Below are positions 1-5,980 of a DNA stretch of 5,999 nt, one piece after another; positions within the stretch are counted from its first letter, which is position 1; each line of letters starts with the position of its first letter. Source of the DNA: Candidatus Woesearchaeota archaeon (GTDB taxonomy: Archaea; Nanobdellota; Nanobdellia; Nanobdellales; Nanobdellaceae); assembly GCA_964468425.1 (NCBI GenBank), contig CAYXSZ010000061.1:1-5999 (forward strand). Direction: 5' to 3'. Both the position numbers and the translations under genes were made by a program. The notes beneath the pieces were generated by a model. It saw nothing but the letters and a program-made list of their open reading frames with translations, did no database searches and had not been told where the DNA came from.

Positions 1-188
<188 letters not shown>

Positions 189-214
189 CCGACGAGCCTC
201 GTCGGTGGGGCCCC
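189..214 (+). other. GC-rich 16S 3' trailer with a hairpin-capable inverted repeat; possibly part of the pre-rRNA processing stem
   Basis: CCGACG(189-194)-AGCCT-CGTCGG(200-205) can form a 6-bp stem with a 5-nt loop. It is followed by the palindrome GGGGCCCC (207-214). GC-richness stops abruptly at 214. The 5' flank that would pair with it in an archaeal bulge-helix-bulge processing stem lies outside the window, so the function is inferred. Confidence 0.35.
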
Positions 215-1980: not shown

Positions 1981-2490
1981 AAAGAAGACAAAATCCTTAA
2001 CCTCTTCGCCCTCCCAGATTATGTCGAAATATTTTTCAAATAAACTTTTCCAGTACTCTTTTTTTGAGCCTCGTTTCAGGACGGAGACTATCAAGAGTCC
2101 ATTAGGGTGAAGAGTTTGATAAATATTTTTCAAATCCTTTTCGGGCTCCTCAGAATCTTGTAAAACAGTTATGCAAGTAACAAGATCGAAGGATTCATTC
2201 AAATTATATTCTGAAAGAAATGTGACGTCTGGATGTTTTTTCTTTGCGAGTTCTAGCATTTTTTCAGAGATATCATAGGCGTATACTCTTTTACATAACT
2301 TCTTAACAAGTTCTATAGAAATCCCAGTTCCGCATCCATAGTCCATTCCTTTTTCAAATTGGAGTTCTCCAAAAATTCGTTTGAAGTTGGAATAGATATA
2401 GTTTATCTTATCTTTCTGCTCCTCTCCATAGAGTTCGTCGTAAGACGAAAAAATCGAGTTGTACCAAACCTTAACTCTCGATTGTGACAC
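1948..2490 (-). CDS. Class I (Rossmann-fold) SAM-dependent methyltransferase, 180 aa, substrate unknown
   Basis: Motif I MDYGCGTG is encoded at about 2323-2346. It is followed by an acidic beta-2 end (VYAYDIS), then FDLVTCITVLQ and HPNGLLIVSV, and is preceded by an N-terminal YDELYG segment typical of small methyltransferases. The only start upstream of the conserved N-terminus is the GTG at 2488-2490, which lies 20 nt inside the 3' end of the uL5 gene. Confidence 0.8.
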   Translation of the reverse strand: MSQSRVKVWYNSIFSSYDELYGEEQKDKINYIYSNFKRIFGELQFEKGMDYGCGTGISIELVKKLCKRVYAYDISEKMLELAKKKHPDVTFLSEYNLNESFDLVTCITVLQDSEEPEKDLKNIYQTLHPNGLLIVSVLKRGSKKEYWKSLFEKYFDIIWEGEEVKDFVFFLKKKTFPNKS

Positions 2491-3001
2491 CGAATTTTTC
2501 TTTTAACCACTCAATAACTTCCTCCTTTGTAGTTCTATGTCTCTTAGGAATCTTTCCCCGTTTCAGACGTCTTTTTGCAACTCTATAACCTGGTCTAGAA
2601 ACGGTTACAACTACATCCATCCCATACATTCCAATTTCGGGATCGTATTTCATTCCAGGAATCCAAACATACTCTTTTATTCCAAATCCAAAGTTTCCAA
2701 ATTCATCGAATTGAGACTTGCTGAGTGTGTTGTTTACGGCTTGTAAGAGCCATTTGAGCGCTTCTTCCGCCTCTTTCTTTCTAAGTGTAAGTTTGACTCC
2801 TATAGGAAGACCAGGACGAATTCCCCAGGAAGGGACTCTCTTCTTCGCCCGAGTCACCACAAGTTTCTTGTTGGGAAACATTTTTTGCAAGAGTTTTTGG
2901 GCTCGCTCAAGAGGCTCTCCTGCTTGACCTACCCCTATGTTGATTGTTACTTTTTCTATGATAATCCTTCGCATTGGGTTATTCTTATTAGCATTCCCCA
3001 T
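2471..3001 (-). CDS. rpl5: 50S ribosomal protein uL5 (L5)
   Basis: ATG at 2999-3001 and TAA at 2471-2473. uL5 hallmarks are present: KVTINIGVG, GIRPGLPIGVKLTLR, GNFGFGIKE, YDPEIGMYGMDV and VSRPGYRV. The ATG lies one base after the eS4 stop (TAA-G-ATG). Confidence 0.95.
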   Translation of the reverse strand: MGNANKNNPMRRIIIEKVTINIGVGQAGEPLERAQKLLQKMFPNKKLVVTRAKKRVPSWGIRPGLPIGVKLTLRKKEAEEALKWLLQAVNNTLSKSQFDEFGNFGFGIKEYVWIPGMKYDPEIGMYGMDVVVTVSRPGYRVAKRRLKRGKIPKRHRTTKEEVIEWLKEKFGVTIES

Positions 3002-3764: not shown

Positions 3765-3785
3765 CTTTTGATTTTGAGTGGAATG

Positions 3786-3793
3786 TTTAAAAA
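3786..3793 (-). promoter_or_regulatory. Candidate TATA box (TTTTTAAA on the - strand) for eS4
   Basis: It sits in the 30-nt uL24-eS4 spacer. Its centre is about 25-26 nt upstream of the eS4 ATG, which is the spacing expected for an archaeal TATA box driving a leaderless mRNA. No SD-like motif is present. Confidence 0.3.
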
Positions 3794-3794
3794 G

Positions 3795-4301
3795 CTACTT
3801 GAAGGATTTGTTTAGCTCGTAGACCTTCGAAAGATCGTCCTTGCTAGTTATTGAAATTTTTAAGAGGTTGTCAATATCTTTATCAGACAATTCAGGATTC
3901 CTTCTGCGAATTATATCTATCCTCTTTTTATCAGTGAGATTTAACTTAGTAATCATCAATTTTGACGCGTGAAGCGGATAGTAACTTTTTTCGCCGTTTT
4001 TCTTTTCGACAAAAGCAGTGTCCACGTAAACTCTATATTTCTTTGTATCTACGTAAATTACGGAACCTTCCTTATCTCTAAACTTCCCTCTGAGGATTCT
4101 GACTTTGTCTCCCACAACTACTGGAAGATTCTTAATTTTTATAATATCTCTTATTTCCTTTGATAAAGGAGAAACTATTAGTTTTCTTCTCACGTGCTTC
4201 GGCGCGTTAATAAGATATTTTCTCTGTTTTCTAGGTTGCTTTGAACTCTTCCAGCTCGAGGACCAGTCCGATGGATTTACATTCTTGAACGTTAAAGCCA
4301 T
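3795..4301 (-). CDS. rpl24: 50S ribosomal protein uL24 (L24), with N- and C-terminal extensions
   Basis: It carries the core uL24 signature SKQPRKQRKYLINAPKHVRRKLIVSPLSKE. It also has a KOW motif (VVVGDKVRILRGKFRDKEGSV) and YYPLHASKLMITKL. The ORF track starts at 4310, but that codon is TTG. The ATG at 4299-4301 (MALTFK...) is the more likely start. The stop is TAG at 3795-3797. Confidence 0.9.
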   Translation of the reverse strand: MALTFKNVNPSDWSSSWKSSKQPRKQRKYLINAPKHVRRKLIVSPLSKEIRDIIKIKNLPVVVGDKVRILRGKFRDKEGSVIYVDTKKYRVYVDTAFVEKKNGEKSYYPLHASKLMITKLNLTDKKRIDIIRRRNPELSDKDIDNLLKISITSKDDLSKVYELNKSFK

Positions 4302-4322
4302 TTTAAGCAAATACAGGAAAAA

Positions 4323-4330
4323 ATTTAAAA
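4323..4330 (-). promoter_or_regulatory. Candidate TATA box (TTTTAAAT on the - strand) for uL24, overlapping the lysS stop codon
   Basis: Its centre is about 25-26 nt upstream of the uL24 ATG at 4301, the same spacing as the eS4 candidate. It overlaps the TAA (4325-4327) that ends the LysRS C-terminal ORF. Confidence 0.35.
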
Positions 4331-5218
4331 GTTAGTAGATCTCCGCTTTAGCAAATTTATCAACTCATTTCTCGAGATTTTTCCTAGATAATAATCTACA
4401 AGTTCTGGAAATTCTTCTGCAGCATTTGTTATTCCTTCATTGTTAATTTTGACAAATGGAAATGCTATCACTTCTTTAATGGATTCTATTCCGAGAACAG
4501 CCATCGCCAATCTTTGTATTCCAACGCCAACGCCTCCCGTGGGCGGCAAACCGTACTCTAAAGCTCTTACATAATCTTTATCCATTGGCATGTATTCTAA
4601 TCCTTCTTTTTTGACTTGTTTTCTAAGTTCTTCTTCCTCTTTGAAGGCTAAATATTGCAGGAATGGATTATTTTGTTCTGAATACCCATTTCCAACTTCT
4701 AAACTATTTATATGGATCTCAAATCTTTCTACATACTCTGGATTTTCCCTATGTGGCTTTGCTAGCGGAGAAACATCTCTCCTAAACAATGTAATAAATG
4801 TAGGATCCGTTATTTTAGGTTGCACATATTTCTCAAACAATTCTTCAATGATCTTGCCTTTCCTTGAAAGTTTCTCTTCATCTTCGATTCCTAAATCTTT
4901 TTTTGCTATTTCTTTTAGCTCTTCGAAACTTAGTTTAGATACATCGATCCCAGTTTCTCTTTTTATCGCTTCTTCCATTGGAAGTCTCTCCCAAGGAGGT
5001 TTAAAGTCCAGTATTTTGTCCCCAATTTCTACTTTATAATCTCCAAATATGTGTTTAATTGTATAAGCTATCATTTCTTCTGTTAATTTCATAATTCTCT
5101 TCCAATCCGCAAATGCCCAATATACTTCGATTTGTTCAAACTCTGGATTATGTGTTGCATCGATATCTTCGTTTCTAAAACAAAGAGCAATTTCATAGAC
5201 TTTATAGAACTGCCCCAC
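4325..5218 (-). CDS. lysS: Lysyl-tRNA synthetase, class II, C-terminal part (motif 2, insertion domain, motif 3), in a separate frame from the N-terminal part
   Basis: FRNEDIDATHNPEFEQIEVYWAFADW is motif 2. ERFEIHINSLEVGNGYSE is present, and YGLPPTGGVGVGIQRLAM is motif 3. The part is colinear with my recollection of E. coli LysS. It opens with GTG at 5216-5218, sharing base 5218 with the TAG of the upstream ORF. It should be read together with 5218-5922 as one interrupted gene. Confidence 0.85.
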   Translation of the reverse strand: MGQFYKVYEIALCFRNEDIDATHNPEFEQIEVYWAFADWKRIMKLTEEMIAYTIKHIFGDYKVEIGDKILDFKPPWERLPMEEAIKRETGIDVSKLSFEELKEIAKKDLGIEDEEKLSRKGKIIEELFEKYVQPKITDPTFITLFRRDVSPLAKPHRENPEYVERFEIHINSLEVGNGYSEQNNPFLQYLAFKEEEELRKQVKKEGLEYMPMDKDYVRALEYGLPPTGGVGVGIQRLAMAVLGIESIKEVIAFPFVKINNEGITNAAEEFPELVDYYLGKISRNELINLLKRRSTNF

Positions 5219-5922
5219 TATAATCTTTTTAGATAAGTTTCGGGGGAAATTGATAAGTAAACTTTATCTTTTGTTGCCCATAGTTCTGTAACAAAGGGCC
5301 TAGCAAGAGCCCCTCCATAAATTTGCTGTAATTTTGGAGTGTAGATTTCTAGGAAATCTCTACTATTCAAGAATTCTCTAAAGTATTGTTTTATTTTAGA
5401 AACAACTTTAATAATCCTCCGAGCTTCGTCATTTAGTGCAAAATCTAGATATCTTTGTTCGTATCTTTTTGCAACGTCTTTAATTCCATACCATTGATGT
5501 GGAATCCCTCTTAAGGTTATAGATAACACTTCGAAATCTTTAACGTTTATGGATAATTCACCTCTTCTTGTTTTCATTACATTTCCATAAACTCCAATAA
5601 TATCTCCCAATACTAGGAGATTTTGTACTATATAGAATTTTTTCTTAGGAAGCACATCTTTTCTAAATAACAATTGAATTTTCCCAGTATCATCTTTTAA
5701 ATCTGTAAAGATTATTCCACCATGAGACCTTATTGCACTTATTCTACCTGCCATGTGATAGTAATCTTTCGTATGCGATCCTGGATCCAGATCTTTATAT
5801 CTTTTCAGGAGATCACTTACTGAAACATTTACAGGATATTCATATTTTCTAAATGGATCTTCCCCAAGTTCTATTAATTCTATTAATCTTTTTACGTTAT
5901 CTCTAAACATTCTAGAGTTCAT
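5218..5922 (-). CDS. lysS: Lysyl-tRNA synthetase, class II, N-terminal part (OB-fold anticodon-binding domain through motif 1)
   Basis: ATG at 5920-5922. The OB-fold region reads HMAGRISAIRSHGGIIFTDLKDDTGKIQL...GDIIGVYGNVMKTRRGELSI. It is followed by RYEQRYLDFALN, FLEIYTPKLQ, GGALARPF and ISPETYLKRL, then TAG (5218-5220). The ORF stops exactly where the colinear LysS alignment continues in the next ORF. Confidence 0.85.
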   Translation of the reverse strand: MNSRMFRDNVKRLIELIELGEDPFRKYEYPVNVSVSDLLKRYKDLDPGSHTKDYYHMAGRISAIRSHGGIIFTDLKDDTGKIQLLFRKDVLPKKKFYIVQNLLVLGDIIGVYGNVMKTRRGELSINVKDFEVLSITLRGIPHQWYGIKDVAKRYEQRYLDFALNDEARRIIKVVSKIKQYFREFLNSRDFLEIYTPKLQQIYGGALARPFVTELWATKDKVYLSISPETYLKRL

Positions 5923-5980
5923 CTTTTATAAAATGCGTAAACACGTATTGTGCCTCGGCGTCTTCCGTTTTCTTTTATAC
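5923..5980 (-). promoter_or_regulatory. lysS upstream region with two TATA-like elements (register and strand unresolved)
   Basis: The perfect palindrome TTTTATAAAA (5924-5933) lies only about 6 nt from the ATG, too close for a leaderless arrangement. GTATAAAA (- strand, 5973-5980) would place a transcription start near 5950, giving a leader of about 28 nt. Either element could instead serve a divergent + strand gene beyond the window. Confidence 0.2.

Follow-up and report, generated by a model that had tools for sequence, protein, structure and literature searches.

The stretch of DNA analysed here (5,999 nucleotides, hereafter the window) carries on its minus strand a class II lysyl-tRNA synthetase (LysRS) gene, lysS, in the form of two adjoining open reading frames. 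The N-terminal ORF (5218..5922, minus strand) encodes 234 amino acids from the ATG at 5922, or 230 from the ATG at 5910, the shorter form being the JGI gene call, and it ends in ...SPETYLKRL followed by TAG. The C-terminal ORF (4325..5218, minus strand) encodes 297 amino acids from a GTG start, opens with (M/V)GQFYKVYEIALCFRNE and is 100% identical to P0001; its frame is -1 relative to that of the upstream ORF. At the junction (TTA-TAG-TG, 5216..5223, minus strand), which on the coding strand reads CTA AAA AGA TTA TAG TGG GGC AG, the stop codon TAG (5220-5218) and the restart codon GTG (5218-5216) have base 5218 in common. The resulting TAGTG (5220-5216) is a -1 overlap of the TGATG/TAATG class, and two co-directional lysS ORFs with a one-nucleotide overlap and a GTG restart have the layout of a coupled gene pair. 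A first-pass annotation of this DNA had given the same ORF coordinates, with base 5218 in both, the same -1 frame relation and the same stop/start overlap, and all of these were confirmed.

Between them, the two ORFs account for a complete class II LysRS. The first matched positions 7-232 of the NCBIfam lysine--tRNA ligase profile NF001756 (TIGR00499; 203.9 bits) and the second positions 235-486 of its 488 (284.9 bits), leaving about two profile positions, and nothing more, missing between them. Each ORF lies below the whole-protein cut-off of 468, and the intact allele P0129, at 517.2 bits, lies above it. The first ORF contains the OB anticodon-binding domain PF01336 (residues 57-133, 67 bits), and PF00152 (tRNA-synt_2) is divided, its profile positions 3-86 falling to the first ORF and 89-306 to the second. 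The class IIb core is thus represented by motifs 1, 2 and 3, with collinear profile coverage across both ORFs. FRNE and the other invariant core columns are present in P0129, from which the window ORFs differ only at polymorphic sites. The nearest solved structures are PDB 9slz and 3a74/3e9h, the intact allele matching 9slz at an E value of 1e-110. The first ORF codes for the N-terminal helix and the OB-fold domain, as well as for the motif 1 helix, the opening strands of the core and helix 228-236. Motifs 2 and 3 belong to the second, together with a C-terminal extension that is helical and about 40 amino acids long. In the AlphaFold model (mean pLDDT 88.6), the cut at residues 234-236 falls at the end of helix 228-236, before a loop and strand 241-249. 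According to this model, the catalytic core is broken where one of its helices ends, just ahead of the strand running into motif 2. The earlier assignment of both ORFs to class II LysRS, end to end, and its placement of the break between motifs 1 and 2 within the catalytic core were therefore correct.

Four independent assemblies share an identical TAGTG junction: the window (NCBI), L010 (JGI 3300041922), L011 (ENA ERZ23491583) and L012 (ENA ERZ940667, from PRJEB19456). A fifth assembly, L009 (JGI 3300007771), carries an intact allele of 532 amino acids that reads TTA GTA GTG GGG (L V V G) at this point, within KRLVVGQF. At alignment column 703/5730, L009 has a G and the other four have a gap, which places the extra base of L009 at 5220..5221 (minus strand). 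By this comparison, the lesion is a one-base deletion, a G having been lost between window bases 5221 and 5220. It costs a single valine, Val235, relative to the intact allele, and the restart GTG is the original codon Val236. The first-pass annotation had deduced from spacing that one residue should stand between KRL and VGQF, and the natural intact allele indeed reads KRL-V-VGQF. Its alternative was a change in the A5 run CTAAAAAG (5226..5230, minus strand), the one place here where a single tRNA might slip by -1 (A AAA A), and adding one A to this run does also yield a 532-amino-acid ORF (YLKKIIVGQF). We reject the run as the historical lesion, because it is unchanged in L009, which has an extra G instead of an extra A.

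The intact L009 allele is also marked by three linked synonymous sites, 14-23 nucleotides from the indel (5207, 5204 and 5198, minus strand), which read TTC..TAT..GTC in all four split alleles and TTT..TAC..GTT in the intact one. The indel state is therefore perfectly linked to three nearby SNPs, and the split alleles differ from each other at 13 further lysS sites. Since four assemblies agree on different SNP backgrounds, and the intact allele differs at linked sites, we take the indel to be a real haplotype. Polarising the three SNPs by the sister species gave no answer, as its TTC, TAC and GTG match each allele once and neither allele once. Mosaic recombination patches were seen (L010:4889-4950; window 2440-2493), and the tight three-SNP cluster beside the indel in L009 looks like a short conversion tract. 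One substitution is private to the window, a CCT to CTT change at 5184 (minus strand) that replaces Pro with Leu in EIAPCFRNE, at a position where homologues have V, T or P. On these sequence comparisons, the window holds what is a genuine, naturally segregating class II lysS allele. The first-pass suggestion of a recent frameshift gains support from an intact allele that is still segregating.

How might such an allele be expressed? A TATA-like box, TTTTATAAAAG (5923..5933, minus strand), lies about 24 nucleotides before the second ATG (5910), a distance like that in most L010 genes. It is likely to be the lysS promoter, with a predicted leaderless mRNA that contains both ORFs. No TATA-like box was found about 27 nucleotides upstream of the GTG restart, unlike at most genes on the contig, so that the second ORF is unlikely to be transcribed from a promoter of its own. 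No Shine-Dalgarno (SD) sequence is recognisable at the GTG either, and the genes of this contig family have no SD motifs. The contig family does have a native one-nucleotide overlap, between the genes for eRF1 and the CCA enzyme (CTGATG at L010:1277). In archaea, overlaps of -1 and -4 couple termination tightly to reinitiation (PMC6728339; PMC10666635), and they are enriched among subunits of complexes (PMC10666635). Read-through of the UAG was considered and rejected, as the zero frame beyond it (WGSSIKSMKLLFVLE...) is unrelated to LysRS.

Loss of the G from TTA-GTA-GTG creates a TAG at the lesion, and the next codon, GTG, overlaps it by one base. We suggest that a single leaderless lysS mRNA would be translated as far as the TAG, where the terminating ribosome would reinitiate at the overlapping GTG, as it would at the native one-nucleotide overlaps of this genome. 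Synthesis next to each other, in a ratio of about 1:1, could then let the products of 27 and 34 kDa reassemble into an active LysRS. This mechanism, which we infer from sequence features, is plausible. The reading that we favour, although we put it at slightly less than an even chance, is a two-piece LysRS of recent birth, with termination-reinitiation at the one-nucleotide overlap. The GTG has neither an SD sequence nor a promoter of its own, and the dependence of everything on reinitiation counts against a two-piece enzyme.

The host looks, from its sequences, like an uncultivated Nanoarchaeota-like archaeon of hydrothermal-vent fluids. The best named match of its ribosomal protein S4e is to Nanoarchaeota (49%), and the assignment is also based on a fragmented ribosomal-protein cluster and an unlinked 16S. 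Scans of a genome collection and of the JGI metagenome collection returned only relatives at no more than 51% identity, and the host species was in neither. LysRS enzymes of either class occur in Nanoarchaeota, and the class II gene of Nst1 has been judged a crenarchaeal import (PMC3655853). The lysS of the window has its best matches in Ignisphaera, at about 55% identity, and it, too, appears to have been imported from Crenarchaeota. The class I lineage in Nanoarchaeota (N. equitans) and the apparent import of lysS make a backup enzyme conceivable, a combination that speaks against the two-piece reading.

A sister species is in frame at the junction of the window, but its lysS has a second, independent frameshift elsewhere in the gene, seen in two assemblies and situated near a domain boundary. 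A cluster look-up found no intact sister allele. The other genes on these contigs, about 17 kb in all, showed no frameshifts; taken with the sister's own lysS frameshift, this could mean that selection on lysS in particular is relaxed, which would also count against the two-piece reading. On the sister contig L030 the catalytic part may already be detached from the N-terminal part, or this may be an assembly-end artefact. When the sister's 189-amino-acid N-terminal fragment was used as a query for a stand-alone N-half family, the best match was 47% and the matches were scattered partial ORFs. As the N-terminal fragment had no close match, nothing marks either split as old or conserved. All of the 40 aligned homologues, like the L009 allele, are single ORFs, and no natural split LysRS was found in the literature. 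As in a split gene of the Nanoarchaeota type, two ORFs reconstitute the full homologue, with only Val235 lost, but the same split is not conserved across related species: it is polymorphic within its own species, and the sister is broken elsewhere. The comparison of the junction among relatives that the first-pass annotation had proposed thus has a divided outcome, the TAGTG being common to four assemblies but absent from L009, which is intact, and from the sister, which is in frame here. That the split is not fixed, and is conserved in no other species, is a further point against a two-piece enzyme.

Polymorphism in lysS amounts to seven nonsynonymous and 11 synonymous changes over 1265 and 331 sites, respectively (pN/pS about 0.17), most of it variation shared with the intact allele, so that it says little about selection after the deletion. 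None of the four split haplotypes has a further stop or frameshift. The extra lesions or relaxed pattern of a pseudogene are therefore not seen, in a comparison of low power, as the intact allele has most of the SNPs too. The deletion is also unusually clean. If a clean outcome is defined as a stop within one codon, a start no more than four nucleotides away and no more than two residues lost, only about 2% of the possible single-base deletions in lysS, and 0.7% of all single-base indels, would be comparable. Such a rare outcome is expected if function-preserving frameshifts alone can spread. Finally, the catalytic half is 72% identical between window and sister species, against 72% for TgtA and 76% for S4e, which argues that lysS has long been under constraint and has not long been redundant.

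The locus may thus show a split gene at its very start, or a gene in the first stage of decay. According to the latter explanation, class II lysS is dispensable because another LysRS, most plausibly of class I, is present, and the broken allele is drifting neutrally to high frequency with a coincidental overlap. LysRS displacement has occurred in the phylum, as N. equitans has a class I and Nst1 a class II enzyme (PMC3655853), and an Ignisphaera-type lysS beside a nanoarchaeal S4e is consistent with horizontal acquisition. The coexistence of intact and broken alleles would fit, as would the independent frameshift in the sister and the apparent lack of frameshifts in the genes around lysS. However, the catalytic half is about as conserved between the two species as TgtA and ribosomal proteins are, which indicates that lysS was needed until very recently. 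Decay is also hard to reconcile with four split haplotypes that lack a second lesion, with the low pN/pS and with a lesion of a cleanness that only about one random deletion in fifty would have. No class I LysRS gene was seen in about 11 kb of host genome, and the two LysRS classes are not known to occur together often in archaea. On balance, we consider early decay unlikely, but to be taken seriously. A related possibility is that the split allele is null or impaired in a gene that is needed, and is kept by polyploidy, in cells that have intact copies as well, by hitch-hiking or by the weak selection common in small populations of symbionts, with recombination now and then restoring the intact form. 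Both alleles do occur in one vent system, and the recombination patches and the conversion-like SNP cluster at the indel would be in keeping with such restoration. Yet the split form is the assembled, and hence majority, form in four of five assemblies and on several recombinant backgrounds, which is hard to square with loss of function in an essential gene that has no substitute; we regard this explanation as improbable.

Two further explanations would leave a single-piece enzyme in place. In programmed -1 recoding, some ribosomes would slip back before the TAG, most likely with tRNA-Lys on A AAA A (5230-5226), to make a 532-amino-acid ...YLKKIIVGQF... protein. The -1 frame is open for 17 codons ahead of the TAG, and the slip product would be of the same length as the intact protein, with three conservative changes (K/I/I for R/L/V). 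A predicted hairpin (5186..5214, minus strand), just past the restart codon, begins eight nucleotides past the A-run, and the sister lesion likewise calls for a -1 shift, with U UUA as a slip candidate. Against this, the zero frame CUA AAA AGA UUA UAG contains no X XXY YYZ heptamer, and AGA after a Lys codon recurs in lysS, unlike what would be expected of a rare, slowly decoded codon. The hairpin is no better than shuffled sequences (z of -1.1 and +0.1), is stronger in the intact L009 allele (a 12-bp stem, z of -0.5) and is absent in the sister. No relative, among the 40 homologues and L009, has the frameshift site, and programmed sites are not usually polymorphic. To our knowledge, the only well-studied programmed -1 shift in archaea is that of Sulfolobus solfataricus fucA1 (alpha-L-fucosidase), which resembles the present case in having an A-rich site just before the stop. 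The fucA1 slip site, however, is a true A AAA AAT heptamer, whereas the window lysS has none and coexists with an uninterrupted allele. Recoding, one of the four explanations left by the first-pass annotation, is therefore weakly supported, with the heptamer absent and a nonsignificant hairpin that the intact allele shares, and we give it only a slight chance. Another of those explanations, a recurrent sequencing or assembly error that drops one base, is very unlikely indeed. Indel errors do occur in metagenome contigs, and L011 is itself scaffolded across an N gap at another position, but the context TTAGTAGTG is not a homopolymer, and the four assemblies come from different pipelines and samples and agree on an indel that is tied to three flanking SNPs. 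The one dataset that was traced, L012, comes from Axial Seamount in 2015 and was sequenced by Illumina (PMC7159903).

A newborn two-piece LysRS would differ from known systems in several respects. One-piece class II LysRSs (E. coli LysS, 1bbu, and LysU, 1lyl) have the same OB domain and class IIb core with motifs 1-3, whereas the window lysS is in two pieces and has the helical C-terminal extension. EpmA/PoxA/GenX and the bacterial PylSn/PylSc show that a core of the LysRS type need not be covalently joined to an N-terminal domain. Those proteins are cut at domain boundaries, as is approximately the case for the break in the sister, but the window lysS is cut between motifs 1 and 2. A cut through the core rather than at a domain boundary is unfavourable to the two-piece reading; in engineered PylRS, one core split required artificial dimerisers (PMC9974479). 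Like the coupled pairs with one- or four-nucleotide overlaps described by Huber et al. (2019, 2023), the lysS ORFs are co-directional, have a -1 overlap and have no SD sequence, but their overlap was born by a frameshift within one gene and not between two. Another parallel is the two-piece AlaRS of N. equitans (AlaRS-alpha/beta), both parts of which are needed for activity (PMC11392972; PMC3655853). It too is a class II synthetase whose full length is divided between two ORFs, and the host of the window is likewise nanoarchaeal-looking. The AlaRS halves are half a chromosome apart, though, and the lysS halves are adjacent and overlap by one base. In contrast to the split genes of Nanoarchaeota generally, the lysS split is polymorphic within a species, is not conserved between species and lies inside the catalytic core.

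Split protein genes are a hallmark of Nanoarchaeota. Those known to us are all old and fixed, and we know of none whose onset has been observed. Whether they are ancestral relics or derived by-products of genome erosion is disputed (PMC3655853). We tentatively propose that what is seen here is the birth of a working two-piece enzyme from an unduplicated LysRS, with alleles that co-circulate and recombine in one vent population and with an independent split in the sister species; this fuller account is possible, but we would sooner expect it to fail in some part than to hold as a whole. If a class I LysRS proves to be present in the genome, the locus would instead represent an ongoing displacement between class I and class II LysRS, a smaller but concrete result. 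Intact and split lysS are one base apart and coexist in nature, and if the two-piece reading is true, the first step of gene splitting would become directly testable: whether an overlap made by a frameshift yields coupled, self-assembling fragments, and whether the two-piece state is close enough to neutral for it to spread. No class II LysRS with a natural cut in its catalytic core would have been known before, and this one would be a useful lead for the engineering of split synthetases.

The window allele of lysS is a real, polymorphic one-base-deletion allele of a vent nanoarchaeon. Its coding-strand junction reads CTA AAA AGA TTA TAG TGG GGC, and the stop codon TAG (5220-5218) overlaps a GTG (5218-5216) by the single base 5218. 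The upstream ORF (5218..5922, - strand) matches positions 7-232 of the 488-position NCBIfam LysRS profile NF001756, and the downstream ORF (4325..5218, - strand) matches 235-486. The first-pass annotation had described a LysRS broken into two ORFs between motif 1 and motif 2 at a stop/start overlap, and that observation was right in every detail. A cluster look-up showed that other contigs also carry the 297-aa and 234-aa products, and that one 532-aa member, P0129, joins both in one chain. When contigs were aligned, TTATAGTG of the window was found exactly repeated in three others of the species, L010 (JGI 3300041922), L011 (ENA ERZ23491583) and L012 (ENA ERZ940667), the last from study PRJEB19456 of Axial Seamount diffuse vent fluids (2015, Illumina; PMC7159903). 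The overlap is not universal: the sister species is in-frame at this point, and L009 (JGI 3300007771), of the window species, reads TTA GTA GTG GGG (KRLVVGQF) within a single 532-aa ORF whose product scores 517 bits against a family cut-off of 468. The L009 reading shows that the split alleles have lost a single G, which would stand between window bases 5221 and 5220; the A5 run is the same in every allele. Leu234 is the last residue of the N-fragment, the old Val236 codon opens the C-fragment, and the valine between them (Val235) is missing.

We hold with high confidence that the deletion is real. Its indel state is in perfect linkage with three synonymous SNPs (5207, 5204 and 5198) lying 14-23 nt downstream, and a sequencing error would not track a haplotype. 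The four split alleles are mutually distinct, with 13 variable sites within lysS (window 5908, 5184, 4714, 4705, block 4619-4580, 4510/4508 and 4451/4429/4421), and many of these variants also occur in the intact allele in differing combinations, the pattern of recombining haplotypes. The sequencing or assembly error that the annotation had entertained is very unlikely, given this linkage, the agreement of four assemblies from different pipelines and a lesion site that is not a homopolymer.

The sister species, found in the same samples, is 76% identical to the window species in S4e and 72% in the catalytic part of LysRS. Its lysS reads CTA AAG AGG TTA GTG GTG GGG at the window junction and carries a one-base frameshift where the motif 1 helix ends, ~150 nt upstream (GAA GGC ATT TTA GAG ATT ACC TGA ttcaa TTG GGG; L031:1400-1450, L029:50-105), leaving one ORF of 189 aa for the OB domain and another of 324 aa for the catalytic part. 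This break is common to two independent assemblies, L031 and L029; most simply, it would be a T5-to-T4 contraction, and it is independent of the window break. The cluster look-up returned no intact sister lysS allele in the collection, and a search with the sister N-fragment returned no conserved family of stand-alone N-halves. In a contig from two JGI samples (L030:1-95), ~90 nt of unrelated C/T-rich sequence is joined to the sister catalytic part exactly at the frameshift point, and an ATG-started ORF crosses the join; this may be either a real detachment or rearrangement of the halves or a contig-end assembly artefact.

Other features of the sister locus were also seen. In L031:2235-3070 and L030:~1000-1193, unlike in L029 of the same species, lysS is G+C-rich over its final ~190 nt, as is the next gene, and the LysRS C-terminus is ...FPAMRREEVELVIEMFPELLDAFH in L031 versus ...FPFVKVDLSKIKNYAEYFPEF... 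in L029; the differing ends would reflect either an allele of recombinant origin or a chimera of the assembly. The anticodon-binding halves (window 5350-5922; L031:873-1442) are 41.5% identical between the two species, against 72% for the catalytic halves, and both N-halves are at least as near to Ignisphaera (51% and 45%) as to each other, suggesting either fast evolution or replacement of the N-domain.

We suggest, tentatively and at a little less than an even chance, that the two pieces function together as a LysRS, which is our best single explanation. The prevalence of the split form, the majority in 4 of 5 assemblies and present on several backgrounds, argues for continued function, since it would not be expected of a null allele in a gene that the cell needs. 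A sheltered or hitch-hiking null allele, though possible, fits that prevalence poorly. When every possible single-base indel was enumerated on the intact allele, the cleanest class (stop at most one codon on, start in the original frame at ≤4 nt and ≤2 residues lost) made up 2.1% of deletions and 0.7% of all indels; the observed lesion belongs to it, as expected if selection filtered spreading frameshifts. The split alleles hold no second lesion and have a pN/pS of ~0.17, a weak argument for function, since the SNPs are mostly older than the deletion or were brought in by recombination.

The strongest rival, and the likeliest to overturn a working two-piece enzyme, is an early pseudogene, a redundant lysS decaying beside a backup LysRS, which we consider less likely. 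The two sister species carry independent frameshifts in lysS but show none across ~17 kb of neighbouring sequence, which points to something special about lysS; this would be explained if the class II copy were a xenologue alongside a native class I enzyme. The sequence available for the window species amounts to ~11 kb. However, the catalytic half is conserved between the two species at the level of TgtA and near that of S4e, so lysS has not long been redundant. Programmed -1 frameshifting, another option of the annotation, is weakly supported: a single-tRNA A AAA A offers the sole place to slip, the hairpin that follows after 8 nt does not outperform shuffled sequence, is stronger in the intact allele and has no counterpart in the sister species, and the frameshift is conserved in no relative among the aligned homologues. 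Low-level spontaneous slippage could supply a trickle of full-length YLKKIIVGQF enzyme under either main scenario.

The lysS promoter box lies 5' of the first ORF, and the GTG has no such box before it; therefore the second ORF would be translated from the same mRNA. For a two-piece LysRS, this one mRNA would serve both ORFs, with restart at the GTG by termination-reinitiation at the 1-nt overlap. In archaea, 1-nt stop/start overlaps give tight termination-reinitiation coupling and are over-represented among genes for subunits of one complex (PMC6728339, PMC10666635). The same genome has a native 1-nt overlap, CTGATG, where eRF1 meets the gene of the CCA-adding enzyme. An AlphaFold model built on the intact allele (pLDDT 88.6) places the cut where helix 228-236 ends, just before a loop and the strand 241-249 into motif 2; the cut is thus predicted to lie inside the core, yet on the border between two structural elements. 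In engineered class II PylRS, 5 of 7 loop sites accepted a cut when the fragments bore interacting peptides; of the two best splits, one depended on such peptides at each fragment, whereas the other gave signs of assembling by itself (PMC9974479). By analogy, reassembly of the LysRS fragments is plausible but not guaranteed. A helical C-terminal extension ~40 aa past the usual LysRS end (window 4325-4450, - strand; residues ~490-532) is predicted with moderate confidence, and its first part is present in the Ignisphaera-type archaeal homologue consensus.

The window is a whole metagenomic contig of 5999 bp with a G+C of 33-42%. Like L010, it ends inside a 16S rRNA gene, the last 189 nt of which occupy 1-189 (+ strand; Rfam RF01959, 165.6 bits); the tail is GGATCGCCTCC, not GGATCACCTCC, and the 1390-1407 region is CCTTGTACTCACCGCCCATCA, with normally universal positions altered. 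The next gene is tgtA (249-1484, + strand), not 23S. Its product has only 411 aa, matches positions 1-390 of 441 of TIGR00432 (423 bits) and has in Pfam the TGT domain alone (residues 11-333), without a PUA domain, which is reminiscent of archaeosine TGT in N. equitans, itself split or truncated. A 170-aa ORF without assigned function or Pfam or NCBIfam match (1468-1980, + strand) overlaps tgtA by 17 nt and is kept by the sister species at 49% identity. The methyltransferase and ribosomal proteins L5, S4e and L24 lie on the - strand. Native tight junctions run from eRF1 to the CCA enzyme and from S4e to L5 (TAAGATG). The ribosomal-protein cluster is fragmented: tRNA-Ala(TGC), a DUF357 gene, a 143-aa ORF and lysS stand between rpl14 and rpl24 (L010:2600-7200), RNase HII precedes rpl24 in the sister species, and S17-L14-L24-S4e-L5 are contiguous in more distant relatives (L025:1900-4500, L022:7800-9100), so the cluster has undergone repeated rearrangement. 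The 143-aa ORF (L010:4600-5031) is conserved, has no Pfam or NCBIfam match and overlaps lysS by 4 nt. Strains are ~99.5% identical outside two hyper-divergent patches, one at the rpl5/methyltransferase boundary (window 2440-2493), where L009 has ~35 differences in 57 nt that alter called lengths (L5 172 aa, methyltransferase 132 aa), and one in the 143-aa ORF (L010:4889-4950; 14 SNPs in 62 nt). Both look like mosaic tracts recombined from a diverged lineage.

The window species is absent from the scanned genome and metagenome collections. The best named relative of its S4e is a Nanoarchaeota archaeon at 49%, with remaining phyla at ≤43%; the fragmented ribosomal-protein cluster and the 16S gene without an adjoining 23S are further grounds for this affiliation. 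Almost all genes have a TTTAAA-like box ~27 nt 5' of the ATG and no Shine-Dalgarno motif, which would fit leaderless mRNAs; TTTAAA/TTTTAAA-like boxes ~25-30 nt before most starts (window 4311-4345, 3765-3795 and 215-248; also L010) suggest gene-by-gene promoters. lysS is nearest to crenarchaeal (Ignisphaera-type) enzymes, at ~55%. The LysRS of N. equitans is class I, and that of the terrestrial nanoarchaeon Nst1 is class II, probably of crenarchaeote origin (PMC3655853).

The window lysS is best grouped with the split genes of Nanoarchaeota, a kind that already includes a split aaRS. Unusually for this kind, its halves are adjacent, its split is polymorphic and its cut lies inside the catalytic core. 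Nanoarchaeota are known for functional split genes, yet within the phylum one LysRS class has also replaced the other.
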